This document shows positions 7,381-52,077 of a DNA stretch of 64,000 bases, piece by piece. The DNA lies in the NCBI GenBank assembly GCA_018650465.1, contig JABIFY010000104.1:6107-70106 (forward strand). The letters are read 5' to 3'. How positions within the stretch are numbered: position 1 is the first letter of the stretch; every line of letters starts with the position of its first letter. The stretch is from Alphaproteobacteria bacterium (GTDB lineage: Bacteria; Pseudomonadota; Alphaproteobacteria; UBA2966). Below the pieces are notes generated by a model that did no database searches, had not been told where the DNA came from, and saw only the letters and a list, made by a program, of their open reading frames with translations. Both the position numbers and the translations under genes were made by a program.

Positions 7381-7443
7381 TTGTGTGTGCCGGCCCGGTC
7401 GGCATCACCAGGATACTGAACAAACAACAGAAGGAAGAAAAAA

Positions 7444-8997: not shown

Positions 8998-9372
8998 ATG
9001 CGGCCACTGTCGAAAAGTTATTTGCGGCTTTCGGTTCTCTATTCGATTATTGGTTTGGGCGTCGGCTTGATGATGGTCTCGGTGGATGATCACAGTCAGA
9101 TGCCTGCGCACGCGCATATCATGCTTATTGGTTTTGTGCTGATGTTTATGTTTGGTGTGTTCTACCGTTTGTGGCCGGAGGCCGAGGCCGGTTGGCTGCC
9201 GGTTCTGCATTTCGCTTTGACTCAAGCTTCCTTTATCGGATTTATGATCGGCTTCTGGCTCTATTACGGCGGCAATCCGGATATGGGAGAAACGCTCAGG
9301 GCGCCGTCAACGACTGTGTTTTTCTTTAACCAGTTCTTGTTTGGCTGGATTGTCTTCAAGGCAACGCGTTAA
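8998..9372 (+). CDS. Small hydrophobic membrane protein (3-4 predicted TM helices). Function unknown.
   Basis: A strong AGGAGG ribosome-binding site lies 8 nt upstream. The protein has hydrophobic segments IIGLGVGLMMV, IMLIGFVLMFMFGVF and FIGFMIGFWLYY. Confidence 0.5.
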   Translation: MRPLSKSYLRLSVLYSIIGLGVGLMMVSVDDHSQMPAHAHIMLIGFVLMFMFGVFYRLWPEAEAGWLPVLHFALTQASFIGFMIGFWLYYGGNPDMGETLRAPSTTVFFFNQFLFGWIVFKATR

Positions 9373-10708
9373 TTTGTATGCCGGCTTCGCGACCGGCGAT
9401 GCGGCCCAGGGTGACGGCTGACAGCAAACCATTGCACGACAAATAACCGCTGCCATCAGTCCCCGAAATACCGCGTGCCGCGCCGCCACCAGCGAACAGG
9501 TTTGGCAAGGTGCTGCCGTCCGGTCGCTGAACGCGGGCATTTGTGTCGACGGCCAAACCACCCTGTGTTTGCAGCAAGGCACCGGTGACCTTGATGGCAT
9601 GATAAGGCGCTGTCAGGGCAGGGGACTTTTCAAGTTTCGCCAGGGTTTCTTCCAGTGCCGGTACGGGCAACTTGCAGGCTTGTGCAAGTGCTGCAGCCGT
9701 CGCGCCGGATTTAATGGCCCTTAAGGTTTGCAGGTTTTTGAAATCTGGAAAACGCATGGCCCCGTCATACAGGCCTTGATCTATCACTGACCAGACGCTG
9801 CCGTCCTGTTGGCAAACGGTTGCCGCCAGTTCCGAGGCCCCCAGGCTTTCATCGCAAAAACGGATCCCCGTTTGGTTGACCAGGATGCCACCGTTATTCA
9901 GCAACGCCCAGGAAACCGTGATGGAGTGCGGCGTGGCAACAGATCCATGACCCTGGAACGCCCCCATGTCTTCACAGGCCGCACCCAAAGCCTGGCCCCA
10001 TAATATCGCTTCTCCCTGGTTGCCTTCATGACCAAAATATATCGATCCCGCCATGTCCGGCAGCCAGCTTTCCACCATGTCCGCGTTGCCACCAAAGCCG
10101 CTTGAGGCCAGCACCAGGGTCTCGCAGCCCAGGCGTTCTATGCTGCCATCGGGACGTGTGATCTGCACGCCCCGCACCCTGTCACCGTCGACAACCAGTT
10201 CTCTGACCGTCGCATTGCAGATGACATCAATGTGGGCGGCATCAACGGCGCGCAAAAGATCGGCCATCAAGTCCGCACCACTGTTCGTCGGTGGGGCATG
10301 GGTGCGCTGGCGACTGTGGCCGGGATAGGGTGGGCCGTCGACCAGCACAAGGTCCATGTTGTGGTGTTTGATCAACCAGTCGATCGTTGGCCCGGACTCT
10401 GTACAAATCGCCGCCAGCAAATCTGGATCAACCCGCCCCCCGGCTTTGGCCTGGATATCGCGGGCGAACAGTTCCGGTGTGTCATCGTGAATGTCTGCGG
10501 CTTTTTGCGGGGAACTGCCACAGGCCGTGATCATGCCTGATGACAAGGCCGTTGAGCCCCTGGGCACCGGGTCGCGTTCCAGCACGATAACTTCAGCGCC
10601 CATGGTATGGGCACTTAGGGCGGCGACCAGACCGCAGGCCCCGCCACCGATGACGACCACGGGAACGGTCAGATCGAATGTGCAGTCAGGATCGTCGATA
10701 ACGGACAT
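9356..10708 (-). CDS. FAD-binding dehydrogenase (fumarate reductase/succinate dehydrogenase flavoprotein-like or KstD-like family). It is the last gene of the minus-strand ebo operon.
   Basis: An N-terminal Rossmann dinucleotide motif is present (VVVIGGGACGLVAALSA). A C-terminal region typical of the FRD/SDH flavoprotein family is present. I placed the start at ATG 10708 (MSVIDDPD). The track ORF extends to 10747 and would overlap eboB. Confidence 0.75.
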   Translation of the reverse strand: MSVIDDPDCTFDLTVPVVVIGGGACGLVAALSAHTMGAEVIVLERDPVPRGSTALSSGMITACGSSPQKAADIHDDTPELFARDIQAKAGGRVDPDLLAAICTESGPTIDWLIKHHNMDLVLVDGPPYPGHSRQRTHAPPTNSGADLMADLLRAVDAAHIDVICNATVRELVVDGDRVRGVQITRPDGSIERLGCETLVLASSGFGGNADMVESWLPDMAGSIYFGHEGNQGEAILWGQALGAACEDMGAFQGHGSVATPHSITVSWALLNNGGILVNQTGIRFCDESLGASELAATVCQQDGSVWSVIDQGLYDGAMRFPDFKNLQTLRAIKSGATAAALAQACKLPVPALEETLAKLEKSPALTAPYHAIKVTGALLQTQGGLAVDTNARVQRPDGSTLPNLFAGGGAARGISGTDGSGYLSCNGLLSAVTLGRIAGREAGIQINALP

Positions 10709-10730
10709 CGGATGTTTGACCGCCAGGCGC

Positions 10731-11648
10731 TTAACCGACAGCGGCATCTTTCAAGGGCGCATCTGCTTCATCAATACGCGGGTTCTGGCCACGCAGGACG
10801 GAGTTATCATCGAACAATGTGCGTTGATCGATGGGCGCCGGGTTGAGCCAGTCTTCTTCGTTGAACTGACCACTTTGGCCATAGGCGTTGATGGCATTTT
10901 GATAGCAGGTCATGTGGATGTGGTGCTGATCAATGCCTTTGCTGGCCATCAGGTTCGCAACCTTGGGCACAGCTAGGGGGTCAGAGACACCCCAGTCGGC
11001 ACTGGAATCACAGATGATCCGTTCCGAACCATATTGGCGCACGACTTCGACCATGCGCTCGTTGCCCATCTTGGTTTGTGGGTACAAGGTGAAAGCGGCC
11101 CAGAATCCCCGGTCCAGTGTTTCCTTGACGGTCTCTTCAACGTTGTGATCAACGATGACCTTGTTGGGGGCCAGTCCGTGTTCCAGACAGACATCCATGG
11201 AACGGCTGGTGCCTTTTTTCTTGTCCCGGTGGGGCGTGTGGATCATGACCAGCATGTCGAGTTCTTTTGCCAGTTCCAACTGGGCCCGGAAATATTTGTC
11301 TTCCGCCGCGGACTGTTCGTCATAGCCGATCTCACCAATGGCGACGACGCCTTCCTTGGTGGCAAAGCGCGGCAAGATATCCATAACTTCTTCCGCCAGG
11401 GCTTCGTTGTTGGCTTCCTTGCTGTTGAGGCCAATGGTGCAATAATGGCTGATGCCAAACTGCGCCGCCCGGAAGCGTTCCCAACCAATCAGCGATGAAT
11501 AATAATCGATAAAGCTGCCGACATTTGTGCGGGTCTGACCCAGCCAGAAGGCGGGCTCGATTACGGCGACAACACCAGCAGCGGCCATGGCCTCATAATC
11601 GTCGGTGGTGCGGGCGCTCATGTGAATGTGCGGATCGATGGTTTTCAT
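10731..11648 (-). CDS. eboB: TatD-family metal-dependent hydrolase (EboB-type).
   Basis: TatD-like N-terminus IDPHIHM and TIM-barrel hydrolase His/Asp/Glu pattern. It sits between the eboA-like and FAD dehydrogenase genes. Confidence 0.7.
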   Translation of the reverse strand: MKTIDPHIHMSARTTDDYEAMAAAGVVAVIEPAFWLGQTRTNVGSFIDYYSSLIGWERFRAAQFGISHYCTIGLNSKEANNEALAEEVMDILPRFATKEGVVAIGEIGYDEQSAAEDKYFRAQLELAKELDMLVMIHTPHRDKKKGTSRSMDVCLEHGLAPNKVIVDHNVEETVKETLDRGFWAAFTLYPQTKMGNERMVEVVRQYGSERIICDSSADWGVSDPLAVPKVANLMASKGIDQHHIHMTCYQNAINAYGQSGQFNEEDWLNPAPIDQRTLFDDNSVLRGQNPRIDEADAPLKDAAVG

Positions 11649-11677
11649 TTTTGTATTCCCCTTAAACCCTTATGTTA

Positions 11678-12556
11678 CTAGGGTTTTGGTGCGTCATTAC
11701 AAACAGTTTCCCAAGAAACGCGTCCGGCTTCAATGTCTGATTTGATCTCTGGTACAGAATTAAGCATGGCTGTGGCTTTTTCGTGCGGGCTTTCCGATAA
11801 GGCCAAAGCCGCTGCCTGGCGCTCGACAATGAGTTCGCGACCCAATGGCCAGCCCAGATCATCAATCAGCTCATCGTTGGCAAAGGGGCCGATCATGCGC
11901 CAAAGTTCAGGCGTTATGGTGCGACTGGCGGCCTGACGTTCATGGGCATAATCAATCAATGTTGTTGCCAGGTCCCGATTGCGACGTCCATCCAGGCCCT
12001 GAATGGGATCAAGCTTGCTGCCGATAAAAATGGCTTTCAGCACCATCTGGTTCCAGGCATTTTCGCCAAAGTTTTCGACCGGGTAGGGATTGTTGTGGGC
12101 TACAGCTTCAAACACAGCCTTCATATTGGTGCGCAGACCCTCGCCCGCCCTGGCAACATAACGTTCCCCGTCGGGATAAAGTGGCAAGCCCTGATAAAAG
12201 GCAATGGATTCGCGAACATCTGCGGTAATGCAGAGTTGCTCCAGGCGGCGGGCAAATTCCGGTCCCTCCGGTGTTGCCGCAAGCATGATCACAAGTCTGG
12301 CTGCCTGATCCACACTCCAGTTCAAAGGGCACCAGCCAGATCGAGCTTCATCTGCGGCTTTCATGTCAGCCGCTGTTAAAATCAGATCAGCTTTGCCAAG
12401 CTTGCGCGGTACCAGACTAACGGCAAGATAGAGATCACGATCAGCCGCGCCATCCAAAGCAGCGGCGCTATCAGTCAGCCAATGGAAGGCCTCGTCGGGC
12501 AATTGCTTTTGCAGCCATTCTTGCATGAGTTCCAGGGGGCGTGTGGGATTGCTCAT
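11678..12556 (-). CDS. eboA: EboA-family protein (function unknown; conserved first gene of ebo clusters).
   Basis: A ~290-aa soluble protein with no other recognisable catalytic motif. It sits immediately between the EboE-like and TatD (EboB) genes, 6 bp after eboE, which matches the eboA position in the canonical cluster. The assignment is by context and overall resemblance, not by a run HMM. Confidence 0.55.
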   Translation of the reverse strand: MSNPTRPLELMQEWLQKQLPDEAFHWLTDSAAALDGAADRDLYLAVSLVPRKLGKADLILTAADMKAADEARSGWCPLNWSVDQAARLVIMLAATPEGPEFARRLEQLCITADVRESIAFYQGLPLYPDGERYVARAGEGLRTNMKAVFEAVAHNNPYPVENFGENAWNQMVLKAIFIGSKLDPIQGLDGRRNRDLATTLIDYAHERQAASRTITPELWRMIGPFANDELIDDLGWPLGRELIVERQAAALALSESPHEKATAMLNSVPEIKSDIEAGRVSWETVCNDAPKP

Positions 12557-12562
12557 ATTTGT

Positions 12563-13774
12563 TTACCCCTCAGCCTCTGGTGTCAGTTGCTGTCGAACCC
12601 AGTTCAACTCACGCACGATAGCGTCGACCACATCTACGTTGCGATATTCCGGCGGCAGGACATTCCAGGTGTAAGTTTCAACTTCAAGATGGCTGGAGAT
12701 TGGTTTTTTACGATGGATGGCCAGTATTTCCCGGATGAAGTTTTGGGTCGTGGCAAATTCACCAAGGTCATCAAGAAATATCGGCACATGAAAATGCACC
12801 CGCCACTCCTCTGCGCTGGCGCCAGCGGCGTGGGACTCAAAGGCCTGTTGCAGATCAATGTGGCGGGTCAGATTGCCGCTGGAATTGGCCACGGTCTGGT
12901 GCAGATAAATCGCATCATCAAAAGGTTTCAACAGCTCCAGCGTGCGATCTGTCACTGGCGCAAAACGCAATCCAGCGCTGATTTGCATTTTGCCGATATT
13001 GATGTTGGCGGCTTCCAGTTTGCGAACGACCTCGTCGGCCTCTTCAAATTCAACTGCCGCATGGCAAAGATCAAGGCAAAGGCCCAGATGACGGCGCAAG
13101 GCCGCTTCAGCGTCTGCCGCATCCAGCGACGTCAATCCCATCAACTGATCACGGGCTGCCGCCGAGAAGAGCCAGGTTTCAAAAAATTCGACGGATTCGT
13201 CTATGGTTTCGATGAAACAACAGGGCTCAGGCTCCAGCGTCAGCGAGATCAGCTTGCCCGTGCGCTGATGGATGTCGACCAGATGGGCCGCGTGCCGGAC
13301 CATGTTTTCCATAATTTCAGTGATATCACGGTCGGACATGATCAGGGTTTTGAACGCGCCAGGCACGGTACTGATACTGCCGTCCATACCATCCGGCAAT
13401 ATATCTGCCAGAATATCAGCCAGCTGGTTGGTGTATGTCAGACGGGCGTTGTCCCGCCAGTCCGGCAGATAAACATTTTCTTTGACCGGCGTGCCGTGAA
13501 AGTCGCCGTAGGGAAAACCGTTCAGGGTAAAGACATATAGATTCTGCTGTGCAAGAAAATCTTTGAATTCAGCCAGGGCTTCTGGCCGGGCCATGTCGTT
13601 GGCTGCAATGGCCGATAACCGTAAACCCATACCAAAGGCTTCATCCGGGACCAGTGCCGCCTTGGCCCGCGGTAAATAATTTTCCAGGCTGGCACGTACA
13701 TCAGGCCAGGTTTCCCCAGGGTGAATGTTGGTGCAATAGGTTAGATGACAATCACCGTCGGGATCGAGTTTCAT
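12563..13774 (-). CDS. eboE: Xylose-isomerase-like TIM-barrel protein, EboE-type ('metabolite traffic protein EboE').
   Basis: N-terminus CHLTYCTNIHPGE and sugar-phosphate isomerase/epimerase-like barrel signature. It is the first gene of the minus-strand operon and is followed by eboA and eboB. Confidence 0.7.
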   Translation of the reverse strand: MKLDPDGDCHLTYCTNIHPGETWPDVRASLENYLPRAKAALVPDEAFGMGLRLSAIAANDMARPEALAEFKDFLAQQNLYVFTLNGFPYGDFHGTPVKENVYLPDWRDNARLTYTNQLADILADILPDGMDGSISTVPGAFKTLIMSDRDITEIMENMVRHAAHLVDIHQRTGKLISLTLEPEPCCFIETIDESVEFFETWLFSAAARDQLMGLTSLDAADAEAALRRHLGLCLDLCHAAVEFEEADEVVRKLEAANINIGKMQISAGLRFAPVTDRTLELLKPFDDAIYLHQTVANSSGNLTRHIDLQQAFESHAAGASAEEWRVHFHVPIFLDDLGEFATTQNFIREILAIHRKKPISSHLEVETYTWNVLPPEYRNVDVVDAIVRELNWVRQQLTPEAEG

Positions 13775-13805
13775 ACGTGATCGTCCGTTTCAGGTTCCAG
13801 GTGAA

Positions 13806-13858
13806 AATTCATAGGTAAAACTTCATAGGTAAAATTTCATAGGCAAGATTTCATAATG
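13806..13858. promoter_or_regulatory. Array of four imperfect ~14-bp direct repeats (consensus wTTCATAGGyAArA), 32-85 bp upstream of the eboE start codon. It is a candidate operator/iteron for the minus-strand ebo operon.
   Basis: Read directly: ttcataggtaaaa at 13808-13820 and at 13822-13834, ttcataggcaaga at 13836-13848, and tttcataatg from 13849. Confidence 0.4.
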
Positions 13859-14062
13859 TCAAAAAGTCTGACGCCGCGGCCTAATTTATGGCCCTGCGGC
13901 TATTCATGACCTGCTTGTCCCGAAATCCACAAATTCGCCAGCCTGATCAAACTTCAATCCGGTTTAGTAAAGTTTATTAACGTACTCGCATTTTTGGTCC
14001 CTGTAACCTGACGTCTGGAAAATCTCTTGGCGTTTGCGCCAAGTGCGCCATTGAAGGCAGCG

Positions 14063-14100
14063 TCCAGCAGGAACTCAAGCGCCCAGCAGGAACTCAAGCG
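14063..14100. repeat. Perfect 19-bp tandem duplication (yCCAGCAGGAACTCAAGCG x2) in the eboE / PQQ-dehydrogenase intergenic region.
   Basis: Read directly from the sequence. Confidence 0.6.
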
Positions 14101-14464
14101 ACGCACCCACAAGGTTTGCATCTTTCCAACTATCGGATCTCTTGAACGCTTCGTCAGCGCAGTTCTCGTAGAAATTGACGGCAAAAGGGAAAACAGGACG
14201 GCTGATTACGGCAAAGTGAAATTTCAAAACATCTGGTTGCTTAATCCCTTTTTGTCAGTAAACTTGTTTGGCGGAGGGGTGTTGAAATAATCAATATTAT
14301 TTAATCTCATATCTATTTCACATCTTAAGACCCCTTTTTGGGCGTTTTTGAAACCCCTTTTGGGGAATTATGTGGTCTAACTTTAGCTTGTAAAATCAAT
14401 GTGTTGCTAAAGTTTCACTCTACCGATAACAACTAATAACAGTTAATACAGGAAGAGGTATATT

Positions 14465-15760
14465 GTGCACAAATTACAAAAATTAGCTGTATCTGCAGCT
14501 GTATCCTTGGCGTTTATTGGCAGTCCTGCCATGGCCTTGGATGTTAAAGTTGAGGCCTTTGCAACAGGACTTGAATCTCCTATTGACCTCAAGGAAGCAC
14601 CCGATGGTACCGGGCGAATTTTCATCATGGAGCAGACAGGCGCGATTGTCGTGGTCAATGCCGACGGTACGATGAGGGCAAAACCATTTCTTGACCTGAG
14701 TGCCAAGATCGTCAAGCAATATGTCCGCTTTGATGAGCGGGGCACGCTGGGGTTTGCATTCCATCCAGACTATAAGAATAATGGCAAATTTTATGTCTAT
14801 TCCAGTCGGGAAATTGTGCGTGAAGCAGAAGGTTTGACCCACGAGATTTTCGGCAACCACACCGCCTATCTTTCCGAGTACAAAGTATCCGATAACCCCA
14901 ATGTTGCTGATGCTGGTTCGGAACGTGTGCTGATGAAGATCGAACAGCCACAATTCAATCACAACGGCGGTACGATGGGATTTGGACCTGACGGCAAACT
15001 TTATCTCGGCCTTGGCGATGGTGGATTTGCCGATGACTGGGGTTGGGGCCATAATAAAGCGACAGGCAACGCGCAGGACTTAAGTAACCTTTTAGGCAAG
15101 ATTTTGCGGATCGATGTAGATTCAAAGTCTGAAGGTCTTGAGTACGGGATTCCAGCGGACAATCCCTTTGTTAATCAAAAGGGTGCCCGGGGCGAGATCT
15201 TCGCATATGGTTTCCGCAACCCTTGGCGGATGACCTTCGACACTGGCGGCACGAACGAACTCTTCGTGGCCGACGTTCAACAGAACAGTTACGAGGAAGT
15301 GGACATCGTTACCAGTGGCGGCAACTACGGCTGGCGCGTAATGGAAGGAACTCACTGCTTCGATTACCACAACCCGAATGACCACCTGAAGTCCTGTGAT
15401 TCCAAAAACATGATTGCTCCAATCATCGAGTACAATCACTGTGTCAAGTTCAAGGGCAAAAATTGCGATGGTGTGAACGTGATTGGTGGTTCTGTCTATC
15501 GCGGCAGCCACAAGGCGTGGCAGGGTAAATACATCTTTGGCGACTGGAGCATGACCTTCGGTGGCAGCAGTGGCAGGCTTTATGCTGCGACCAAAAGTGG
15601 TGGCAAATGGAGCTTCGAGCGTGCCAATGTGACCAATGATAAATTCAAAACTCATATCCTGGCCGTTTTACAAGACCTTAAAGGCAATGTTTACGCCTTA
15701 ACGTCGGGTTCTATGGGGCCATTCGGCTCTCGCGATACAGTCTATAAGATCGTACCGTAA
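14465..15760 (+). CDS. Periplasmic PQQ-dependent sugar dehydrogenase (soluble glucose/sorbosone dehydrogenase, SGDH beta-propeller family), paralogue 1.
   Basis: GTG start with an AGGAAGAGG ribosome-binding site. Signal peptide with the AMALD cleavage region. GSDH family motifs are present (RGTLGFAFHPDY; HNGGTMGFGPDGKLYLGLGDGG). Confidence 0.8.
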   Translation: MHKLQKLAVSAAVSLAFIGSPAMALDVKVEAFATGLESPIDLKEAPDGTGRIFIMEQTGAIVVVNADGTMRAKPFLDLSAKIVKQYVRFDERGTLGFAFHPDYKNNGKFYVYSSREIVREAEGLTHEIFGNHTAYLSEYKVSDNPNVADAGSERVLMKIEQPQFNHNGGTMGFGPDGKLYLGLGDGGFADDWGWGHNKATGNAQDLSNLLGKILRIDVDSKSEGLEYGIPADNPFVNQKGARGEIFAYGFRNPWRMTFDTGGTNELFVADVQQNSYEEVDIVTSGGNYGWRVMEGTHCFDYHNPNDHLKSCDSKNMIAPIIEYNHCVKFKGKNCDGVNVIGGSVYRGSHKAWQGKYIFGDWSMTFGGSSGRLYAATKSGGKWSFERANVTNDKFKTHILAVLQDLKGNVYALTSGSMGPFGSRDTVYKIVP

Positions 15761-15894
15761 GTCTGAATAAACCGGAAAGAAGCCTGGTCGTCCAAGGGCG
15801 GCCAGGCTTCTGCCGTTTACAGAACAATTTCCGCTGTTTGTATTGTTTGATTTCATTTCGAAAAGACGAATTTCTCAGATAGAAAAGACGAATA

Positions 15895-16332
15895 ATGACG
15901 AAGCTACTCCAGTTCACTTGTTTTGCTCTGACTTCAGGTCCCCGTCTCCAGCCAACCACTTTCTTTCCAGGATTGCGCAAGTCTCCCGCTTCCTTGGCTG
16001 GCATCGCGCTGGTGCTTTTTGTCTTTTGCATTGCTGGAGGTGCCCCAAGCGCAAACGCCTCGCCTGAGGCCAAAGCGCTCCTACTGGAAAAAGGGTGTGG
16101 TGGCTGCCACTATATTCCCGGAGTTGAAGACGCCTACGGCGATGCCGGGCCGTCCCTGAAGGGTATGAAAACGCGAAAACGCCTGCTTGGGGGGAAGCTG
16201 AAAAACACCCCGGAAAACATGAAGGCTTGGCTGATGAATCCTGGATCGGTAAAATCGGGCACTGTGATGCCCAATTTAGGTCTTACCAACGAAGACGCTG
16301 ATATCATGATCGAATATTTCAAAAAAATCTAA
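15895..16332 (+). CDS. Small c-type cytochrome (mono-haem, CxxCH), secreted.
   Basis: Haem-binding motif CGGCHYIP with a downstream Met ligand region (GTVMPN). A hydrophobic signal segment is present (IALVLFVFCIAGGAPSANA). The true start is probably internal to the track ORF, near 15960-15990. Confidence 0.65.
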   Translation: MTKLLQFTCFALTSGPRLQPTTFFPGLRKSPASLAGIALVLFVFCIAGGAPSANASPEAKALLLEKGCGGCHYIPGVEDAYGDAGPSLKGMKTRKRLLGGKLKNTPENMKAWLMNPGSVKSGTVMPNLGLTNEDADIMIEYFKKI

Positions 16333-16618
16333 GACCTCCAGGCAAACGTCCAAATGCTACACGCCCTCTTTCGTCTTCAAGCGTATTACCAATTGATTCC
16401 GGAAAATGCCGGCATGGGAAGAGGCTTATGACCGCGACGAACGTATTGCTGATGTCGCCTGGATCCTGCATTGCAAGTTCGCTCTGTAGATGTGAGTCGA
16501 ACGCCGGGGCATCTCTTCCGCTCCCGGCATTATCGAACTCGTTTGTGTCAATGCGCCACAAAACCCGTTTGACCCGTTCGGCGACAATCCGGGCCAACAG
16601 CAAAGGACGAGGTCGGGA

Positions 16619-17737
16619 ATGAGTGATCCTTCCATTCGTCAACGCAAACTGGATCATGTCGCGCTCGCCATGAGCGATGCGGCGGTCTCTGCCTGTGATC
16701 CAGGCTGGTCCGACGTAACCCTTGTGCCGGTCACCTTGCCAGAGACAAGCCCGGACGATGTTGATCTCGCGTTGAGCTTTCTGGGCTTTGATTTGCGGGC
16801 GCCCATTTTAATTGCGGGCATGACAGGTGGCCATCCGGACGTCGAAAAAATTAATGCCGCCCTCGCCACTGCCGCGCAGGCCCATGGCGTGGCCATGGGT
16901 GTGGGCAGCCAGCGTGCCGCTTTGCTCGACCCTGATCTGGTGCCGTCCTATGCCATTGTCCGCCAACATGCGCCCGATGCCTTTATTTGCGGCAATATCG
17001 GCATTTCGCAGGTTCTGGAAGGTGAGACCGGCACAGACATATTGGCCCGGCTGGTCGACATGGTCGAAGCCAACGCCCTGGCCGTCCATATCAATGTCCT
17101 GCAGGAACTGGTGCAGCCGGAAGGTGATATTAAACCCGGTGGTGCGTTTGAGGCCCTCGGCAACATGGTGGCCAAATCGCCGGTGCCGGTGATTGTCAAG
17201 GAAACCGGCTGTGGCTTTGATCAGGTTACCGCAAACCGGCTAAAGGATACCGGGATTGCGGCCATTGATGTCGGCGGCATGGGCGGGACCAGCTTTACCC
17301 TGATCGAAGGTATGCGTGCAGAAACAGCCAGGGACCGACGCGGTGCACGCCTGGCCCAAACCTTTTCCACTTGGGGTATTCCGACGGCCTGCAGTGTGTT
17401 GGAAGTTCGCGACACCGGTTTGCCGATTATTGCCACAGGCGGCATTTCAGATGGACTTCAGGCCGCAAAGGCCTTGTCGCTGGGCGCACATCTGGTTGGC
17501 ATTGGCCGCAAGATGTTGACCGCAGCCGTTGCGGGACCAGAGGCCGCTGTCGAAGAACTGGGGCTGATTATTGAAGAAATCAGAATCAGTCTGGCTTTAA
17601 GTGACTGCCGTAATCTGAAACAATTTGCGACACGTCAATCGGTGTTGTCCGGCAAGGTCGCTTTGTGGCAGGCCCACAAGCAACTCACGAAGAGCGCTGA
17701 CGGCAGCGACGAAAAAAATATCGGGGGAACAGACTGA
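16619..17737 (+). CDS. fni: Type 2 isopentenyl-diphosphate delta-isomerase (FMN-dependent IDI-2).
   Basis: IDI-2 hallmark motifs are present: RKLDHV (RKxxH), IAGMTGG, MGVGSQR, AVHINVLQELVQPEGD and VIVKETGCG. The protein is 372 aa. Confidence 0.85.
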   Translation: MSDPSIRQRKLDHVALAMSDAAVSACDPGWSDVTLVPVTLPETSPDDVDLALSFLGFDLRAPILIAGMTGGHPDVEKINAALATAAQAHGVAMGVGSQRAALLDPDLVPSYAIVRQHAPDAFICGNIGISQVLEGETGTDILARLVDMVEANALAVHINVLQELVQPEGDIKPGGAFEALGNMVAKSPVPVIVKETGCGFDQVTANRLKDTGIAAIDVGGMGGTSFTLIEGMRAETARDRRGARLAQTFSTWGIPTACSVLEVRDTGLPIIATGGISDGLQAAKALSLGAHLVGIGRKMLTAAVAGPEAAVEELGLIIEEIRISLALSDCRNLKQFATRQSVLSGKVALWQAHKQLTKSADGSDEKNIGGTD

Positions 17738-19114
17738 ATGCGCAAGACGGTTGTCATCAATGTGGTGGGGTTGTCGCCTTCGATGGTAGGGGCGAACACA
17801 CCGAACCTAAAAAAACTCAGCGATAAAGGCGGCATACGACCCCTGCACACGGTCACCCCGGCAGTGACCTGTGCCTCACAAGTCACCTATCTGACGGGCA
17901 CCTTGCCAAGTGAGCATGGCATTGTGGGCAACGGCTGGTTCTTCAAGGATTTGTCGGAAATCTGGTTTTGGCGCCAATCCAATAAACTGATCAAGGGCGA
18001 ATGGGTCTGGGAGACGGCCAAGGCGCGCGACAAGACATTCACCTGTGCCAATATGTTCTGGTGGTACAACATGTACCTCACGGCGGATATTGGCGTGACG
18101 CCGCGGCCCATGTATCCAGCCGACGGGCGCAAGTTGCCAGACTGTTATGCCAAGCCAGAAAGCTTGCGGGTTGAGTTGACCAAGAAACTTGGACGTTTTC
18201 CCCTGTTCCGGTTTTGGGGACCAGCTACGGACATCTCATCCAGTCAGTGGATTGGTGATGCGACCGTTCATGTGCGCGAAACCAGTGACCCGACCTTGAC
18301 CCTGGTCTACTTGCCGCACCTTGATTACAACCTGCAACGCCTTGGCCCCGACCATCCTGATATTGCCGTCGACCTGCGCGAAGTGGATGGGGTTTGTGGC
18401 CAGATTATCGACCAGGCCGAAGCCGATGATGCCCGGATCATTGTATTGTCGGAATATGGCATCACGCCCGTCAATCGTCCCGTCCATCTAAATCGTGTGT
18501 TGCGCCAGGCTGGCCTCATTCAGGTGCGCGAGGAAGAGCACGACAAAGAGATACTTGATCCCGGTGCCAGCGGGGCTTTCGCCGTGGCAGATCATCAGAT
18601 CGCCCATATATATGTCAACGACAAAAGCCGTCTGGCGGAAATCAAAAGCCTGATCGAAGCCCAGCCCGGCGTCGAGGAAGTGCTGGATGCCGCTGGCAAA
18701 GTGGAACGTGGCCTCGATCATGACCGGGCAGGGGATCTGGTGGCAATTTCAGATGCGGACAGCTGGTTTACTTATTATTATTGGCTTGACGATGCCAAAT
18801 GCCCGGACTTTGCCCCCACCGTCGAAATCCATCGCAAGCCGGGTTACGATCCGGTGGAACTGTTCATGGACCCGGCGATTACCTTCCCCAAGGTTGCGAT
18901 CATTTGGCGGCTGGTCAAAAAAATACTGGGCTTTCGTACCCTGATGGATGTCATTCCGCTGGATGCCAGCCTGGTCAAGGGATCGCATGGGCGACCCACA
19001 GACGACGATCAAGAAGGGGCTGTCTTCATGACCTCTGACGCCGCCTTCGCCGAAGAGGGGCCATTAGCCCCCACAGCCGTTAAGGACATGATCCTGCGTC
19101 ACGTGTTTGAATAA
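17738..19114 (+). CDS. eboF: Alkaline-phosphatase-superfamily nucleotide pyrophosphatase/phosphodiesterase (EboF-type).
   Basis: Type I phosphodiesterase/NPP family N-terminus (VVINVVGLSP...TPAVTCASQVTYLTGTLPSEHGIVGNGWF), with a Thr nucleophile context. The start codon abuts the fni stop, which suggests translational coupling. Confidence 0.72.
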   Translation: MRKTVVINVVGLSPSMVGANTPNLKKLSDKGGIRPLHTVTPAVTCASQVTYLTGTLPSEHGIVGNGWFFKDLSEIWFWRQSNKLIKGEWVWETAKARDKTFTCANMFWWYNMYLTADIGVTPRPMYPADGRKLPDCYAKPESLRVELTKKLGRFPLFRFWGPATDISSSQWIGDATVHVRETSDPTLTLVYLPHLDYNLQRLGPDHPDIAVDLREVDGVCGQIIDQAEADDARIIVLSEYGITPVNRPVHLNRVLRQAGLIQVREEEHDKEILDPGASGAFAVADHQIAHIYVNDKSRLAEIKSLIEAQPGVEEVLDAAGKVERGLDHDRAGDLVAISDADSWFTYYYWLDDAKCPDFAPTVEIHRKPGYDPVELFMDPAITFPKVAIIWRLVKKILGFRTLMDVIPLDASLVKGSHGRPTDDDQEGAVFMTSDAAFAEEGPLAPTAVKDMILRHVFE

Positions 19115-19225
19115 ATTATGTAATATGTCTAACGATGGACAAATAATCACATTTATGGCTAGGCTGACACTTGAGATTGATCATCGGGGGATGATTGGAG
19201 CCGATCATTTGGGGATGGCAAATTA

Positions 19226-20443
19226 ATGGCTGAGGCACGAGATATGGGTGATCTGGATACGGAACTGCAATCGGGCACGGATGTGTATATGCAGCAGTTT
19301 TCTGTGCCCTTCGCTTATCCCGTTTATTTTACCAAAAACATGTTCGCTGCGGACAACGAGGTTTTTATCAAGGCCTTGACCCGTCTGGAAAGCCACCGAC
19401 AGCATCGCTTTGTCACGTTCATTGACGCCGGTGTGGCTGATGCTCTGCCGAATTTGGCCGATGACATTACAAACTATGCTCAGGCCAATGCGGAAACCAT
19501 TGATCTGGTCGCAGCACCGGAAATTATTTCCGGCGGCGAAGGTGTCAAAAACGATCCGGACCTTATTGCCCGATTGCAAAAACAAATGCTGGATTTGCGT
19601 ATTGATCGACATTCCTTTGTCATGGCCATCGGTGGCGGGGCCTTTCTGGATATGATCGGCTATGTGGCGGCCACGACACACAGGGGCCTGCGTCTGATCC
19701 GGGTGCCGACAACTGTCCTGGCACAAAACGATTCCGGTGTTGGGGTCAAAACCGGGGTGAACGCCTGGGGCTCAAAAAATCTACTGGGCTCCTTCGCGCC
19801 GCCGTTTGCTGTGATCAATGATTCGACCTATTTGGCGAGCCTGAATGAACGGGACCGGCGGGCCGGTATGGCGGAAGCCGTCAAGGTGGCCCTGATCAGG
19901 GATGGCAGTTTTTTTGCCGCCCTAGAAGCCAATGCCGAAGCCCTGGCCCGGTTTGATCCCCCCGCAGTTAATCACCTGATCCGGCGCTGTGCTGAATTGC
20001 ACATGCATCAAATTGCCTTTGGTGGTGACCCGTTTGAAGCTGGCAGCGCCAGGCCACTGGATTATGGCCACTGGGCGGCGCACAAACTTGAGTCCATCAC
20101 CGACCATGCTGTGCGCCACGGTGAAGCCGTGGCCATCGGTCTGGCCCTGGATACCCGCTACAGTGTTGCCAAAGGCTTGTTGGCACCGGGCAATGAAGAC
20201 CGTGTGTGTGCCTTGCTGGACAAGCTGGGCTTTGATCTCTGGCATCCGGCGCTGGAGATGCGCAATGAGGATGGCATTCTGACAATTCTGGCGGGCTTGC
20301 GAGAGTTTCGCGAACATCTGGGTGGCGAATTGACCATTACCTTGTTGACCGGAATTGGCACCGGGCATGAAGTAAACGAAATGGACGAGGCTATTATTCT
20401 CGACAGTCTGGCCTGGCTCAAAAATCGTGCCTCAAACAAATAG
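19226..20443 (+). CDS. eboD: 3-dehydroquinate-synthase-family sugar-phosphate cyclase (EboD-type).
   Basis: DHQS fold motifs are present (AIGGGAFLDMIGYVAA; NDSGVGVKTGVN; metal-binding His context HGEAVAIGL). Confidence 0.8.
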   Translation: MAEARDMGDLDTELQSGTDVYMQQFSVPFAYPVYFTKNMFAADNEVFIKALTRLESHRQHRFVTFIDAGVADALPNLADDITNYAQANAETIDLVAAPEIISGGEGVKNDPDLIARLQKQMLDLRIDRHSFVMAIGGGAFLDMIGYVAATTHRGLRLIRVPTTVLAQNDSGVGVKTGVNAWGSKNLLGSFAPPFAVINDSTYLASLNERDRRAGMAEAVKVALIRDGSFFAALEANAEALARFDPPAVNHLIRRCAELHMHQIAFGGDPFEAGSARPLDYGHWAAHKLESITDHAVRHGEAVAIGLALDTRYSVAKGLLAPGNEDRVCALLDKLGFDLWHPALEMRNEDGILTILAGLREFREHLGGELTITLLTGIGTGHEVNEMDEAIILDSLAWLKNRASNK

Positions 20444-20461
20444 ATTCCGGAACAATATTTG

Positions 20462-21346
20462 ATGAATATTCAGATTGCCCTGCGTCTTGGAAGGGTCTCG
20501 AATTTACCCACTGTCTGGACCAATGTTCTGGCCGGACTGACGCTCGCCAGTGTAAGTGCTGGTACGAGCGCGAGCTCGGCACAAATCTGGGCCTTGATGA
20601 TTTCCATGACGTTTTTCTATCTCGGCGGTATGTATCTGAATGACGCCTTTGATGCGGAAATTGATGCGGCGGAGCGCCCGGAACGGCCCATTCCATCCGG
20701 TCAGGTGTCGGCCCGACTAATCTTCCACCTGGGCTTTGGCATGCTTTTACTGGGCATTGCCGGCTTGGCCTGGGCCGGAACGCAATTACCAAATGGCACG
20801 GGCTGGGGCCCGGCGATTGCCGGTCTGGCCTTGGCGGCCTGTATCACATTTTATAACTGGAACCATAAAAATAACCCGTTGAGTCCCCTGGTCATGGGCG
20901 CTTGTCGCATGCTGATTTATGTGGCCGCAGGACTGGTGCTGACGACGTCATTGCCGAACGGACTGTATTTCGGGGCAGGTGTATTGCTGTGTTATTTGAT
21001 CGGTTTGACCTTTGCTGCCAAGCAGGAAAACCTCAATCAAATCACTAATCTTTGGCCCCTGATCTTTCTGGGCATTCCCTTTGCTTATGCAGCGGGCATG
21101 CTGGAAATCGATCAGACAAGTCTGGTTATTCTGGCGGTCTTTTTGCTCTGGGTTTTGTACGCCCTGTCCTTTTTGGTCTTCCCGTCCCGGATCAATGTGC
21201 CGCGGGCTGTGGTTTCCCTACTGGCGGGGATATGCCTTCTGGATGCCTTGCTGATCGCCGCCAGTGGCGAGACAAACCTCGCTCTGTTTGCCCTGGTTGG
21301 ATTTCCACTGACCCTGGCCTTCCAGCGCTGGATACCAGGAACCTGA
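20462..21346 (+). CDS. eboC: UbiA-family aromatic/polyprenyl prenyltransferase (EboC-type), integral membrane.
   Basis: UbiA Asp-rich motif NDAFDAEIDAAERPERPIP. Eight or nine hydrophobic helices. I placed the start at ATG 20462. TTG 20459 is also in frame. Confidence 0.8.
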   Translation: MNIQIALRLGRVSNLPTVWTNVLAGLTLASVSAGTSASSAQIWALMISMTFFYLGGMYLNDAFDAEIDAAERPERPIPSGQVSARLIFHLGFGMLLLGIAGLAWAGTQLPNGTGWGPAIAGLALAACITFYNWNHKNNPLSPLVMGACRMLIYVAAGLVLTTSLPNGLYFGAGVLLCYLIGLTFAAKQENLNQITNLWPLIFLGIPFAYAAGMLEIDQTSLVILAVFLLWVLYALSFLVFPSRINVPRAVVSLLAGICLLDALLIAASGETNLALFALVGFPLTLAFQRWIPGT

Positions 21347-21375: not shown

Positions 21376-22815
21376 TTGAAAATTGGGGACACCATGAAAA
21401 AAACCTGTCTGGCAATCGCGATAACCTTTTCTCTTGGCGGTGCTGCGATGGCGGCTGAAGCCCTGCCGAAGGTTACGCTTGAACTTGTGGCGGAAGGTTT
21501 GTCCGCCCCGCTCTTGCTTGTGGCGCCGCCGGATACCAGCGGTCGGAAATTTATTGGCGATCAGCTCGGTGTGATTTATGTGCTGGAGGCAAACGGCAAT
21601 AAACTTGCCGCACCGTTTCTCGACTTGCGGGATAAACTGACGCCACTGAAACAAGCCTTTGATGAACGCGGTTTGCTGGCCCTGGCCTTCCATCCGCAAT
21701 TTGCCAAAAACGGCAGGTTCTACGTCAACTACAGTGCCAAAAGACGGCCAAATTCCCCCTTTACCGGCAAGACAGCCTACACCTGGCGAACCTCGGAGTT
21801 TAAAGTTTCGGCCAGTAATCCAAACCGTGCTGACCCGGCCTCCGAACGGGTTTTGCTGGAATTTGACTGGGTCAATCGCAAACATAATGGCGGTGGCCTG
21901 GCCTTTGGCCCCGATGGCTATTTATATGTCGGTGTTGGTGATGGCGGCGGGGCCCATGGTGTGCCTGATGTCTACGTACCGCCGAAACGGGACGAGGGCG
22001 ACGCCTATCGTCATGCAGACGAAATCGACGAAGACCCGTTCAAAATACCGAAACGTTTTCATAAATATGATCGCTATGCCCAGGATACCCAGCGCCTGAA
22101 GGGCAAAATCTTGCGTCTTGATATAAATCCCGAAAATACTGACAAGGGCCACCCAGGTTACGCCATTCCCCTGACCAATATTTTTCGTGGTAAATCAGAA
22201 GGTCGTGACGAGATTTACGCTTGGGGTTTCCGCAACCCTTTCCGTTTGTCCTTTGACCGCAGTGGCAACGGTGACATGTTTGTCAGTGGGGTCGCTGAAT
22301 CGTTTTGGGAAACGGTTTACCTGGTCGATAAACAGGGGAACTATGGCTGGTCAGTGCGGGAGGGGCGGCATTGTTATGAGCGCGCCCGTGCCTTCAATCC
22401 ACCAAAAGACTGCCCGAAAACCGGCCTGCTGGGTGAGCCTATCCGCGATCCCGTGATCGAATATGCAAATTGGTCCGTCAAACGGAAATGGTCGAAGGTT
22501 GATGCTGACCCCATGGGCACTGCTAATATTGGCGGCTTCCTCTATCGCGGAAAAGCCCTGCCATCGCTCTATGGCAAGTTTGTTTTTGGCGATTTCAGTT
22601 CGGTCATTCAACGGCCTTCGGGGCAGATATTTGTGGCCACCCCGCAAGCCGTCTGGAAGTCTCTGTGGAGAATCGAAAAACTGCATCAAATGAATGTGCG
22701 GCTGCACAGCCTGGGCGAAGACAATGAAGGCGAGCTATATTTGATGACAACGGCCCAGGGCATCCCGGTGGGGAATTCCGGCAAGGTATGGAAACTGGTG
22801 CCTGCGTCGCAATGA
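21376..22815 (+). CDS. Periplasmic PQQ-dependent sugar dehydrogenase (SGDH family), paralogue 2.
   Basis: Signal peptide (MKKTCLAIAITFSLGGAAMAAEA). Motifs RGLLALAFHPQF and HNGGGLAFGPDGYLYVGVGDGG are present. It is paralogous to 14465..15760. Confidence 0.8.
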   Translation: MKIGDTMKKTCLAIAITFSLGGAAMAAEALPKVTLELVAEGLSAPLLLVAPPDTSGRKFIGDQLGVIYVLEANGNKLAAPFLDLRDKLTPLKQAFDERGLLALAFHPQFAKNGRFYVNYSAKRRPNSPFTGKTAYTWRTSEFKVSASNPNRADPASERVLLEFDWVNRKHNGGGLAFGPDGYLYVGVGDGGGAHGVPDVYVPPKRDEGDAYRHADEIDEDPFKIPKRFHKYDRYAQDTQRLKGKILRLDINPENTDKGHPGYAIPLTNIFRGKSEGRDEIYAWGFRNPFRLSFDRSGNGDMFVSGVAESFWETVYLVDKQGNYGWSVREGRHCYERARAFNPPKDCPKTGLLGEPIRDPVIEYANWSVKRKWSKVDADPMGTANIGGFLYRGKALPSLYGKFVFGDFSSVIQRPSGQIFVATPQAVWKSLWRIEKLHQMNVRLHSLGEDNEGELYLMTTAQGIPVGNSGKVWKLVPASQ

Positions 22816-22846: not shown

Positions 22847-24367
22847 ATGACGTTGCCAACGCCGCTTACAAAAGGACAGGAAAAAAAGGTCCTGATGACA
22901 ACAGCGATTGTCAGCGGCATGGGCTTTGCTGACATGATGGCTGTTAATACAGCTCTGCCGGTTATGCAGGCTCAGCTGGGCATGGATGCGGCCAGCGCTT
23001 TGTGGGTGGCTGAAATTTATCTTCTGTTTGTGGCTTCGTTGATGATGATGGGCGGGGCTCTTGGTGACCGGTTTGGTTATCGCCGGGTTTTGCGCTATGG
23101 CATTATTGCCTTTGCAGCATCGTCCCTGTTCTGTGCGGCGTCGACGTCAGGTGACATGTTGATTTTTGCCCGCGCGACCCAGGGTCTGGCAGCGGCCATT
23201 GTTCTGCCCTCCAGCCTGGCCCTGCTAAATGCCTGTTTTCCAGCGGCTCAACGCGGCATGGCGATTGGCAGCTGGACGGCCATTAGCTCCATGATGATAC
23301 CGCTCGGACCACTTGCCGGTGGGGCGGCGGTTGATCTTCTGTCCTGGCACTGGATCTTTATTATCAATCTGCCGCTATGTGCCGCTGCATATTTCTTTCT
23401 GCGTGGTGTGCCAAGACCACCTTTTGGGCAGACGGCAACGGCTCGCCTGGACATTATTGGCATCATCGGAATTACCAGCGGCTTGGGCGCTCTGGTCTTT
23501 GGTTTACTGGAAGGCGCGCGGCGTGGTTTTGCTGATGATCTGGTGATTGTTTCTCTCATCGCTGCCGCAATTTTGCTGCCGCTTTTGATTGTTTATGAAG
23601 CAATTTGCAAGTCTCCCATGCTGCCCTTGTGGATGTTTCGGCGGCGTGTTTTTGTCTTGGTGAACATGCAAACTTTTCTGTTTTTTTCCGGCTTCCAGGG
23701 TGCGTTGTTCTTGCTGCCCTTCTTTCATATTCAGGTCTATGGCCTCACAGCCCTTCAGGCCGGTGCCGCCGGTTTGCCCATATCTATCGCCATGGTGTTA
23801 TTGTCTCGTGCCGTGGGAAAGTTAATGGACAAACACGGTGCCGGGCCTTTGTTGGCCAGTGCCCCGTTTCTGATTGCAGGTGGATTATTCTGGCTGGCCC
23901 AGGTGCCAGCCGACGGGACCTATTTTCGCCACGTCTTGCCACCTCTTGTCATATTGTCCACAGGGATGGGATTTTTTATTGCGCCACTGACAACGGTGGC
24001 CCTGAACGCCGCGGGAGAAGGGCGCAGTGGCTTGGCCTCGGCTGTAAATAACACCATGTCCAGGGTCGCGGGTTTGGTTTCCGTCGCCATGATGGGCGTC
24101 TTGCTGACCAACGGCTTTACAAAAAGCCTTGCCGCAAATCTGGCTGCTTTGGGCCTTGATGCAGAACAGTTGTCGTTAATTAATGGCCAGGTTCAACGCT
24201 TGGCTGCCCTGGTGCCACCTGCCTCCCTCAGTCAGGACCAGGTGGATGCCCTGGACATGACCGTTCGCACAGCCTTTACTGTCGGTTTCAGCGATGCTGT
24301 ATTGGTTGCCTCGGCTTCAATGGCGCTGGCGGGCGTTGTCGGCGTGATTGGTTTGAAGAAGTTTTAA
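22847..24367 (+). CDS. MFS transporter (14-TMS drug:H+ antiporter DHA2-like).
   Basis: The protein is about 506 aa with many hydrophobic helices. MFS motif A-like sequences GDRFGYRR and LGPLAGG are present. Confidence 0.8.
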   Translation: MTLPTPLTKGQEKKVLMTTAIVSGMGFADMMAVNTALPVMQAQLGMDAASALWVAEIYLLFVASLMMMGGALGDRFGYRRVLRYGIIAFAASSLFCAASTSGDMLIFARATQGLAAAIVLPSSLALLNACFPAAQRGMAIGSWTAISSMMIPLGPLAGGAAVDLLSWHWIFIINLPLCAAAYFFLRGVPRPPFGQTATARLDIIGIIGITSGLGALVFGLLEGARRGFADDLVIVSLIAAAILLPLLIVYEAICKSPMLPLWMFRRRVFVLVNMQTFLFFSGFQGALFLLPFFHIQVYGLTALQAGAAGLPISIAMVLLSRAVGKLMDKHGAGPLLASAPFLIAGGLFWLAQVPADGTYFRHVLPPLVILSTGMGFFIAPLTTVALNAAGEGRSGLASAVNNTMSRVAGLVSVAMMGVLLTNGFTKSLAANLAALGLDAEQLSLINGQVQRLAALVPPASLSQDQVDALDMTVRTAFTVGFSDAVLVASASMALAGVVGVIGLKKF

Positions 24368-24398: not shown

Positions 24399-25397
24399 AT
24401 GAACAAAGATCTTTTATTTGGTATTCAGACCAATGGCATTCGACATACAGAGGCCGATGGCATGCCTGATATCGACACCCGCTTCGCCATGGTGCGCGAC
24501 GCCGGTGTGTTTGACTATGTGGACAAAACACCAGATCCCCACGAAATAGAAGATTTCCGGGCGGCCTCAAAAAAATATGGCTTGCCGGTGCGCGGCAGTG
24601 GCTGGTTTTATGCCGTTGGTCGCGACGAAGACTTGTTGGCCAACAATCTGGCCATTGCCGGTGACCTGGGATCAACCGTGCACAATGTTCAGGTCCTGGC
24701 CAAGCGCGCCGATGGTGAACTTGCCAGCAACGAAGACGTCGTCAATTTCTATGAAACATCGCTGGAACTGGGTGACAAACAGGGTGTCATGCCCTGCCTG
24801 GAAGTTCATGTGAATATGTGGTCCGAGGATTTCCGCCGGGTCACCCCTGTAGCACATCTCGCAGAATCGCGCGGGTTGCCCTTTCGCATGACCCTGGATC
24901 ACAGCCACGTCATTTTCAAAATGGATAATCCACGGGAACAACAGGTCTTTGATATCAGTAGCGATGTGGCGTCAGGCAAACTGGTGCTGGACCCCTTTGT
25001 GGATGGTGATGTGTGCAGTGAATGGATCGACAACAATTGGATCGGCCATTGTCATGCCCGCGCTGCGGTACCGAATAATCCCTTGAATACTCAAGCCAGC
25101 GATGAAAACGGCAATCCGGGTCGTGGCATTCAGTATCCCTTTGCCGAACCTGCCCCTGGCACCTGGCATGCAGACTGGGATTTGGCGGCCCTGGAGCCCT
25201 GGAAAGAAGTTGTGCGGAAATTATTGCGTCATCACGCCCAAACTGACGACAGCCCGCTGGGTCAGATATCAACCGAATTTATTCCCAACCTGGATTACGG
25301 CGAGGGCTGTCGTTATTCCCTGTTTGATCAGGCCATTGCCTGCGTTGAATGGATGCGGGTGGAATGGGATACAGCGCAGTCGTTGGCATCCTCCTAA
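24399..25397 (+). CDS. Hypothetical protein. Possibly a xylose-isomerase-like TIM-barrel (sugar-phosphate isomerase/epimerase-like) or a metal-dependent enzyme.
   Basis: I recognise no clear family. His/Glu/Asp-rich segments are present (HVNMWSED, LDHSHVIFK, GHCHAR). It is tightly linked to the downstream reductase, 6 bp away. Confidence 0.4.
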   Translation: MNKDLLFGIQTNGIRHTEADGMPDIDTRFAMVRDAGVFDYVDKTPDPHEIEDFRAASKKYGLPVRGSGWFYAVGRDEDLLANNLAIAGDLGSTVHNVQVLAKRADGELASNEDVVNFYETSLELGDKQGVMPCLEVHVNMWSEDFRRVTPVAHLAESRGLPFRMTLDHSHVIFKMDNPREQQVFDISSDVASGKLVLDPFVDGDVCSEWIDNNWIGHCHARAAVPNNPLNTQASDENGNPGRGIQYPFAEPAPGTWHADWDLAALEPWKEVVRKLLRHHAQTDDSPLGQISTEFIPNLDYGEGCRYSLFDQAIACVEWMRVEWDTAQSLASS

Positions 25398-25403
25398 AGA
25401 ACC

Positions 25404-52076: not shown

Positions 52077-52077
52077 C

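Follow-up and report, generated by a model that had tools for sequence, protein, structure and literature searches.

A type-2 isopentenyl diphosphate isomerase gene linked to eboF in alphaproteobacterial ebo clusters, and its possible role in precursor supply

The ebo genes are among the most widespread conserved gene sets in bacteria; long without a known function, they have now been tied to thallusin, a picomolar algal morphogen. A complete set is found in a 64,000-nt stretch of contig JABIFY010000104.1 (positions 6,107 to 70,106, forward strand) from an uncultured marine alphaproteobacterium of the GTDB lineage UBA2966 (assembly GCA_018650465.1), referred to here as the window. It includes an additional gene, fni, encoding a predicted type-2, flavin mononucleotide (FMN)-dependent isomerase (IDI-2) for isopentenyl diphosphate (IPP) and dimethylallyl diphosphate (DMAPP), immediately upstream of eboF. 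An earlier note on this DNA read fni, eboF, eboD, and eboC as one operon, in which fni would supply the UbiA-family prenyltransferase EboC, and took this as support for a prenylated ebo product. As a description of the ebo genes present this was incomplete: all six (A through F) are inside positions 10731–21346 of the window, in two divergent arms, with eboE, eboA, eboB, and a flavin adenine dinucleotide (FAD)-dependent flavoprotein gene on the minus strand and fni, eboF, eboD, and eboC on the plus strand. Genes for a GSDH-type dehydrogenase and a c-type cytochrome sit between the arms. The plus arm also extends beyond eboC, with a second GSDH-like gene, a DHA2-family MFS pump, a TIM-barrel protein, and a ferredoxin reductase (Table 1). 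The genes are not in the single co-directional eboABCDEF order, but since phylum-specific ebo gene orders are already in the literature (10.64898/2026.05.21.724671), that order is not decisive for ebo membership. The window holds a complete ebo cluster, split and decorated, rather than an F-D-C fragment.

The fni product scores 351.9 bits against the TIGR02151 equivalog model (cutoff 281.3), with residues 8–344 matching profile positions 1–337 of 338, and aligns over its full length with the IDI-2 structures 1P0K (Bacillus subtilis) and 2ZRU (Sulfolobus shibatae), at E ~1e-59. The IDI-2 signature tested consists of an N-terminal R-K-x-x-H, the motifs S-x-R and H-x-N-x-x-Q-E of the substrate and Mg site, and a catalytic-site lysine. 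The S. shibatae reference residues are R7/K8/H11, S96/R98, H155/N157/Q160/E161, and K193; by alignment to 2ZRU, the window protein keeps all of them, as R9/K10/H13, S97/R99, H157/N159/Q162/E163, and K194. A protein 100% identical to it is annotated as a type 2 IDI in an Alphaproteobacteria metagenome-assembled genome (MAG). Against three relatives, dN/dS for fni is 0.09, 0.10, and 0.16, values comparable to those for eboA, eboE, and the FAD flavoprotein gene; fni is under purifying selection. By sequence it is a bona fide IDI-2, as first proposed, and isomerase activity is predicted.

The four plus-strand open reading frames (ORFs) are as first described, and the junction sequence bears out the abutment of fni and eboF: the fni TGA (17735–17737) is followed directly by the eboF ATG (17738), giving TGAATG within the sequence ...CAGACTGAATGCGC..., and a Shine-Dalgarno-like purine-rich run, GGGGGA, is found inside the 3′ end of fni. 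A fused fni-eboF protein was considered and rejected, given the stop codon at the junction. The gaps are 0 nt between fni and eboF, 111 nt between eboF and eboD, and 15–18 nt between eboD and eboC, depending on whether the latter starts at TTG or ATG. A consensus promoter and terminator scan, whose overall counts were near the shuffled expectation, turned up nothing in the relevant gaps: there is no terminator-like site in the plus-strand gaps from fni to the MFS gene, and specifically none between fni and eboF, where the earlier note had named one as evidence against its reading. Folding gave nothing unusual for the spacer between eboF and eboD (111 nt; z −0.45) or for the 286 nt before fni (z −0.39), and Rfam showed neither a riboswitch nor another structured element in the cytochrome c-fni or eboF-eboD spacer, its one match being sub-threshold and elsewhere. 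Upstream, there is a GC-rich hairpin 3′ of the first GSDH stop codon, at ~15780–15811. The last ~125 nt before fni are ~90% identical to those of a related locus, L008, with a 140-nt insertion in the window just upstream of the conserved stretch. Because this identity is kept despite a coding dS of 0.4–0.8, it suggests a promoter or leader there. Alignment of the fni upstream regions of seven relatives showed similarity between near neighbors only, and no common operator. Taken together, fni and eboF are probably translationally coupled; judging from strand, spacing, and the lack of terminator-like sites, they are also likely to be co-transcribed, and it is plausible that co-transcription reaches eboD and eboC.

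For comparison, the contexts of fni homologues were followed at falling identity, and 80 species-level proteobacterial ebo loci, out of the roughly 3,400 ebo clusters reported overall, were fetched via EboE. The closest genomes carry the label Alphaproteobacteria or Rhodospirillaceae and are from marine MAGs; relatives (among them GCA_016776605.1 and JABILA01) include MAGs from Saanich Inlet, the Black Sea, and ETNP. At 87, 84, 80, 71, 68, 62, and 61% fni identity, in every relative examined, fni is directly upstream of eboF, with gaps of 0–36 nt; the pair is divergent from an arm of GSDH, cytochrome c, eboE, eboA, eboB, and FAD flavoprotein genes, and the genes farther out are different in each. 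The fni stop and the eboF start adjoin or overlap in three loci: the window, L008, and L078, the last of these from another class and described below. Synonymous sites are saturated across these relatives (dS 1.4–5), and because the linkage has been kept across this divergence and with differing flanks, it can be taken as more than chance. In a neighbor-joining tree, the ebo-linked alphaproteobacterial fni genes form one clade; two stand-alone genes that are not ebo-linked, at 60% (P0024) and 53% (P0038) identity, are in a sister clade. In two sister alphaproteobacterial ebo loci, L016 and L018, eboF and GSDH are immediate divergent neighbors that leave no space for fni, which is therefore regarded as an accessory gain. 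Most simply, fni was gained once, just ahead of eboF, and has since been inherited vertically with the cluster. A placement unrelated to ebo in relatives, which the earlier note had raised as a possible refutation, is ruled out by these contexts: the relatives have fni with ebo, and the sister lineages are without it.

The position of eboC is less constant. In the 61–71% relatives L003, L005, and L006/L012 it is several kb from fni-eboF; in L005 and L006/L012, both eboD and eboC are on the opposite strand to the pair; and in L013 neither is within the stretch examined. Only the sub-clade at 80% fni identity or more, which contains the window, shows the order fni-F-D-C(-MFS), and the MFS gene is directly 3′ of eboC in L008 and in the P0003 contig. 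The unit conserved across the clade is the fni-eboF pair, and the fni-F-D-C arrangement is derived. Of the proposed single transcript supplying EboC, the co-orientation of fni with eboF holds up, while the linkage to eboC is a derived one, with eboC elsewhere in the 61–71% relatives.

Outside the alphaproteobacteria, a type-2 IDI gene above the TIGR02151 cutoff (353 and 346 bits) is present in two of the 80 ebo loci: L078, from a Gammaproteobacteria MAG, and L055, from a Burkholderiales MAG. In L078, fni overlaps eboF by ATGA and heads the series eboF-A-B-D-E-C; in L055 it follows eboC-GSDH-cytochrome c. In L088, whose fni is 78% identical to that of L055, the order is GSDH-cytochrome c-fni-eboD. 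These beta- and gammaproteobacterial genes have 61% mutual identity. Because they are only 36–37% identical to the window fni, they represent a second fni lineage, recruited separately into ebo clusters of these classes. Their relatives outside ebo clusters (66–70% identity) follow bchG (itself a UbiA family gene) and bchP in photosynthesis gene clusters, as seen in a Gammaproteobacteria MAG and in Ectothiorhodospira lacustris; the ebo-linked fni products of both lineages share their catalytic-site residues with their respective non-ebo relatives. Independent recruitment of this kind argues for a functional link between fni and ebo. TonB-dependent receptor or TonB genes flank these beta- and gammaproteobacterial clusters (L078 2010–4386, where the receptor is in two ORFs and possibly frameshifted; L055 15706–16638; L088 690–3155), and would fit the reported metal-chelating thallusin and a siderophore-like uptake route.

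Table 1. Features of the split ebo cluster and its surroundings, in window coordinates.
Feature	Position	Strand	Length, matches, and remarks
fni, type-2 (FMN-dependent) IPP isomerase	16619..17737	+	372 aa; TIGR02151
eboF, alkaline-phosphatase-superfamily (nucleotide pyrophosphatase/phosphodiesterase, NPP-type) hydrolase	17738..19114	+	458 aa; PF01663 Phosphodiest 216 bits
eboD, dehydroquinate synthase (DHQS)-like (PRK06203-type) sugar-phosphate cyclase	19226..20443	+	405 aa; NF004852 570 bits; PF01761, PF24621
eboC, UbiA-family prenyltransferase, proteobacterial type	20459/20462..21346	+	295/294 aa (TTG/ATG start); PF01040 53.6 bits
eboE, TIM-barrel protein, first ebo gene of divergent arm	12563..13774	-	NF035939 473.5 bits, cutoff 250
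eboA	11678..12556	-	NF035938 EboA domain 159 bits, cutoff 50; NF035937 269 bits, cutoff 320
eboB, TatD-family hydrolase	10731..11648	-	PF01026 64.7 bits
FAD-dependent oxidoreductase, fumarate-reductase/TcuA superfamily	9356..10747	-	PF00890 169.6 bits; TIGR01813 212 bits (below cutoff)
GSDH-type (PQQ-dependent-like) dehydrogenase, signal peptide	14465..15760	+	PF07995 134.7 bits; common ebo accessory
c-type cytochrome, CGGCH heme motif, paired with GSDH	15895..16332	+	PF00034 27.7 bits
Conserved 5′ region before fni, likely promoter/leader	16495..16618	+	Similarity to L008
Second GSDH-like gene	21395..22815	+	PF07995 75.7 bits
DHA2-family MFS efflux transporter, likely product exporter	22847..24367	+	PF07690 160 bits; TIGR00711 228 bits
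Possible IS256/Mutator transposase C-terminus remnant	14027..14290	+	PF00872 E=0.0019, profile positions 342–373 of 379, below gathering score

Most of the ebo assignments in the window are straightforward. Its eboF is 59–98% identical to the eboF of 60+ ebo loci, with dN/dS of 0.014–0.06; eboD and eboB are 51–95% and 51–99% identical, respectively, to their counterparts elsewhere; and EboE has 60% identity to that of Granulosicoccus antarcticus and 100% identity to a recorded protein of an Alphaproteobacteria MAG. EboA is 292 aa long, with the EboA model (219 positions) covering residues 9–222 only, and the C-terminal extension of ~70 aa is kept in relatives (293–296 aa). EboC required more attention. 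The window UbiA protein scores 126.2 bits on the EboC model NF035940, below the cutoff of 250, and 94 bits on NF045897 (SCO3242). It is 43–93% identical to the UbiA proteins adjoining eboE in 60+ proteobacterial ebo loci, and its first aspartate-rich motif, N60-D61-x-x-D64-x-x-x-D68, is intact. The UbiA adjoining eboE in L078 (11161–12054) is likewise below the NF035940 cutoff, at 106.6 bits, and the Prokaryotic Genome Annotation Pipeline (PGAP) labels the plasmid-borne EboC counterparts as “UbiA family prenyltransferase” only. The NF035940 model is narrower than the EboC ortholog group, and a sub-threshold score is general among proteobacterial EboC proteins. Conserved position and the UbiA motif settle the window protein as a predicted proteobacterial EboC ortholog; that it might be some other UbiA protein was rejected, given that the low NF035940 score is shared by other proteobacterial EboC. 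As an annotation matter, NF035940 misses proteobacterial and Deinococcus EboC orthologs (106–126 bits, cutoff 250), and the Streptomyces ortholog, labelled “SCO3242 family prenyltransferase,” adjoins inositol-3-phosphate synthase. A PDB sequence search with EboC gave distant matches only, uninformative as to substrate.

A prenylated cyclitol was predicted as the ebo product by Yurchenko et al. 2016, who also speculated that EboF is a prenyl-diphosphate phosphatase (PMC5133447). EboC homologues (Ubi-297) were shown in 2022 to farnesylate 8-hydroxyquinaldic acid in vitro with farnesyl diphosphate (FPP) as donor (PMC9235831). In a preprint of May 2026, ebo genes were reported to determine production of thallusin, a farnesyl-derived meroterpenoid: production requires each of eboB, C, E, and F, incorporates aspartate, and uses FPP as the donor, and one alphaproteobacterial producer with ebo genes is Tranquillimonas alkanivorans (10.64898/2026.05.21.724671). 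The view that prenylation of the ebo product is still hypothetical is outdated in light of these last two reports. The interpretation in the earlier note is partly supported, with two further corrections: the ebo cluster is more than F-D-C, and prenylation by EboC has moved beyond a hypothesis. An IPP isomerase in ebo clusters is not mentioned in the thallusin preprint, its supplement, or Yurchenko 2016, and the sole isopentenyl mention in Yurchenko 2018 concerns IPP import by Phycorickettsia; within the literature searched, the fni-ebo association appears to be undescribed. Because the EboC donor is FPP, fni would act two steps upstream of it.

Bacteria with the methylerythritol phosphate (MEP) pathway make IPP and DMAPP together, via IspH, with IPP in excess, and FPP synthesis takes one DMAPP per two IPP. 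The explanation we consider probable is that fni is a co-expressed helper, rebalancing IPP and DMAPP for the supply of FPP to the ebo cluster. The isomerase gene would have entered the eboF-led arm at its promoter-proximal end and be expressed with eboF, and in the window sub-lineage also with eboD, eboC, and the MFS exporter. Its product would interconvert IPP and DMAPP; from the rebalanced pool, the housekeeping FPP synthase could supply enough FPP once the cluster is switched on; and EboC would transfer the farnesyl group to a cyclitol/aspartate-derived quinoline acid. That fni is active as an isomerase, that EboC of this lineage takes FPP, that the cluster makes thallusin or saccharoquinoline, and that fni serves to balance flux are inferences.

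Several points weigh against this explanation. Among the 80 proteobacterial ebo loci, seven have fni, as do five of the 43 with all six core genes, and it is absent from all six of the annotated ebo clusters on plasmids that were compared (Rhodobacterales, Azospirillum, Mycetohabitans, Deinococcus, and Streptomyces; four phyla); fni is therefore dispensable for the ebo pathway. The gene may also serve general isoprenoid metabolism. A search of the whole 64-kb window found no polyprenyl or FPP synthase gene and no gene of the MEP or mevalonate (MVA) pathways elsewhere in it. The conserved neighbor of fni is eboF, not the prenyltransferase, and eboC is on another transcript in several relatives. 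The thallusin assignment itself rests on a preprint and on other taxa.

Alternatively, fni could be a general, non-essential IDI, beside ebo by inheritance and without any pathway-specific role. An IDI is dispensable in MEP-pathway bacteria, most ebo clusters are without fni, and close stand-alone relatives exist (P0024, P0038). We nevertheless think this unlikely: the adjacency, orientation, and tight spacing of fni and eboF have outlasted saturated dS and turnover of the outer flanks, the codons of the two genes abut or overlap in three loci (window, L008, and L078), and an unrelated second fni lineage has joined ebo clusters at three different positions. A more specific proposal would pair fni with EboF on an isoprenoid branch, EboF processing a prenyl diphosphate, for example to the monophosphate. 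This would explain why fni has stayed with eboF rather than eboC: the fni-eboF bicistron is ancestral and the most conserved arrangement in the clade, while eboD and eboC move; the fni-to-eboF order, with its ATGA overlap, arose independently in L078; and the phosphatase idea for EboF is already in the literature (PMC5133447). On the other side, eboF heads the operon in both lineages, so that any promoter-proximal insertion adjoins it by default; fni is next to cytochrome c in L055 and eboD in L088 instead; EboC homologues use FPP itself in vitro (PMC9235831; 10.64898/2026.05.21.724671); and the PDB matches of EboF (phosphonoacetate hydrolase, NPPs) are distant and silent on substrate. The pairing therefore strikes us as improbable, somewhat more so than a general IDI, and we give equally little credence to the corresponding two-enzyme module, in which EboF would act on a prenyl diphosphate or in the phosphate chemistry of a prenylated intermediate. 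If it were true, the linkage of fni to eboF would point to the missing EboF function.

Finally, fni might be a homologue with a new role in the ebo pathway, an FMN-dependent redox or isomerization step with a cyclitol or quinoline intermediate as its substrate. IDI-2 has the TIM-barrel fold of FMN-dependent alpha-hydroxy-acid oxidases (there is a PF01070 match), and aromatization and oxidative ring opening are without an assigned ebo enzyme (10.64898/2026.05.21.724671). Yet every residue in contact with diphosphate, Mg, or substrate is the one found in characterized IDI-2 and in the non-ebo relatives, the equivalog cutoff is exceeded in both recruited lineages, and one of these lineages has barely diverged from photosynthesis-cluster fni. 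Such a change of function would be very surprising, and is the least credible of the readings considered.

The other genes of the cluster offer candidates for steps of this kind. GSDH genes are found in 33 of the 80 loci, and the GSDH-cytochrome c pair recurs in L001, L003, L005, L006, L055, and L088; as a speculation, the two could act in the periplasm to oxidize saccharoquinoline to thallusin, a step to which no enzyme has been assigned. The FAD flavoprotein gene, which overlaps the 3′ end of eboB by 17 nt, is found in nine of the 80 loci, all in the alphaproteobacterial clade. Because aspartate is a reported thallusin precursor, this FAD_binding_2 protein (fumarate-reductase/TcuA/NadB superfamily) is a candidate for oxidizing or desaturating the aspartate-derived part. 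The GSDH-cytochrome c pair also shows signs of rearrangement. Its orientation in the window, L008, and the P0003 contig is opposite to that in L001, L003, L005, and L006, and the window-type pair is ~51% identical to that of the other relatives, compared with 70–95% for the neighboring genes. A tandem repeat of four 14-nt units (13799–13855) lies at the rearrangement junction, along with the weak transposase remnant. These features suggest replacement or inversion of the pair mediated by a mobile element.

Farther out, positions 24399–26483 hold a weak xylose-isomerase-like TIM-barrel gene and the 2Fe-2S/FAD ferredoxin-reductase gene. These two and the second GSDH-like gene are in this window only, with none in L008 or other relatives, and look like recent additions. 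On the other flank (46–8622) are genes for a combined biotin carboxylase/biotin carboxyl carrier protein (BCCP), an acyl-CoA synthetase, a carboxyltransferase, a Zn-dependent alcohol dehydrogenase, an enoyl-CoA hydratase, and a thiolase, a run resembling a leucine/acyclic-terpene (liu/atu-type) catabolic cluster; a carboxyltransferase gene is also near ebo in L005. The region 36607–52842 is unusually rich in two-component genes, with two hybrid histidine kinases (1096 and 1448 aa), one of which bears periplasmic solute-binding domains, and five response-regulator or histidine phosphotransfer (Hpt) proteins.

The window cluster resembles the canonical eboABCDEF operon in having all six families, including a UbiA protein with the NDxxDxxxD motif. 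It differs in being split into two divergent arms (E-A-B-FAD and fni-F-D-C-...) instead of one A-F operon; in its additional fni, FAD oxidoreductase, GSDH and cytochrome c, and MFS transporter genes; and in having EboC and EboA proteins below the NCBIfam family cutoffs. In the EDB (“edible”) cluster of Pseudomonas fluorescens NZI7, ebo likewise comes with three additional genes, signal peptides being present in some of their products (PMC6282210, PMC12904256), which gives it the same gene count as L055, where GSDH, cytochrome c, and fni join the six ebo genes; no Pseudomonas protein is among the top 120 fni homologues. The purple-bacterial photosynthesis clusters (bchG-bchP-...-fni) also have an IDI-2 gene co-directional with, and beside, a UbiA gene whose product consumes a long prenyl diphosphate, but there the reaction is bacteriochlorophyll esterification, and the window fni is of the other lineage (36% identity). 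Actinomycete meroterpenoid clusters (furaquinocin, naphterpin, BE-40644) carry attached mevalonate-pathway/fni cassettes. As proposed for the window, these put a precursor-supply gene into a prenylated-aromatic cluster, raising or balancing IPP and DMAPP for the cluster prenyltransferase, but they bring the whole mevalonate pathway, whereas the window has the isomerase only, in a proteobacterial host that presumably uses the MEP pathway. The BE-40644 cluster is mentioned in the thallusin preprint (10.64898/2026.05.21.724671).

Precursor-supply genes in isoprenoid-consuming clusters are already well known, and the finding of fni leaves the view of such clusters unchanged: the window has a known cluster in a decorated form particular to its lineage, with a familiar strategy of embedding precursor supply. 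For the ebo pathway itself, these loci point to candidate accessory enzymes (GSDH with cytochrome c, and the FAD oxidoreductase) for steps that lack an assignment. The repeated, independent capture of fni provides a comparative-genomic line of evidence, separate from the biochemistry, for use of the isoprenoid pool by the pathway. It further suggests that flux in proteobacterial producers is limited by the balance of DMAPP and IPP, which gives a practical pointer for heterologous production and pathway engineering.

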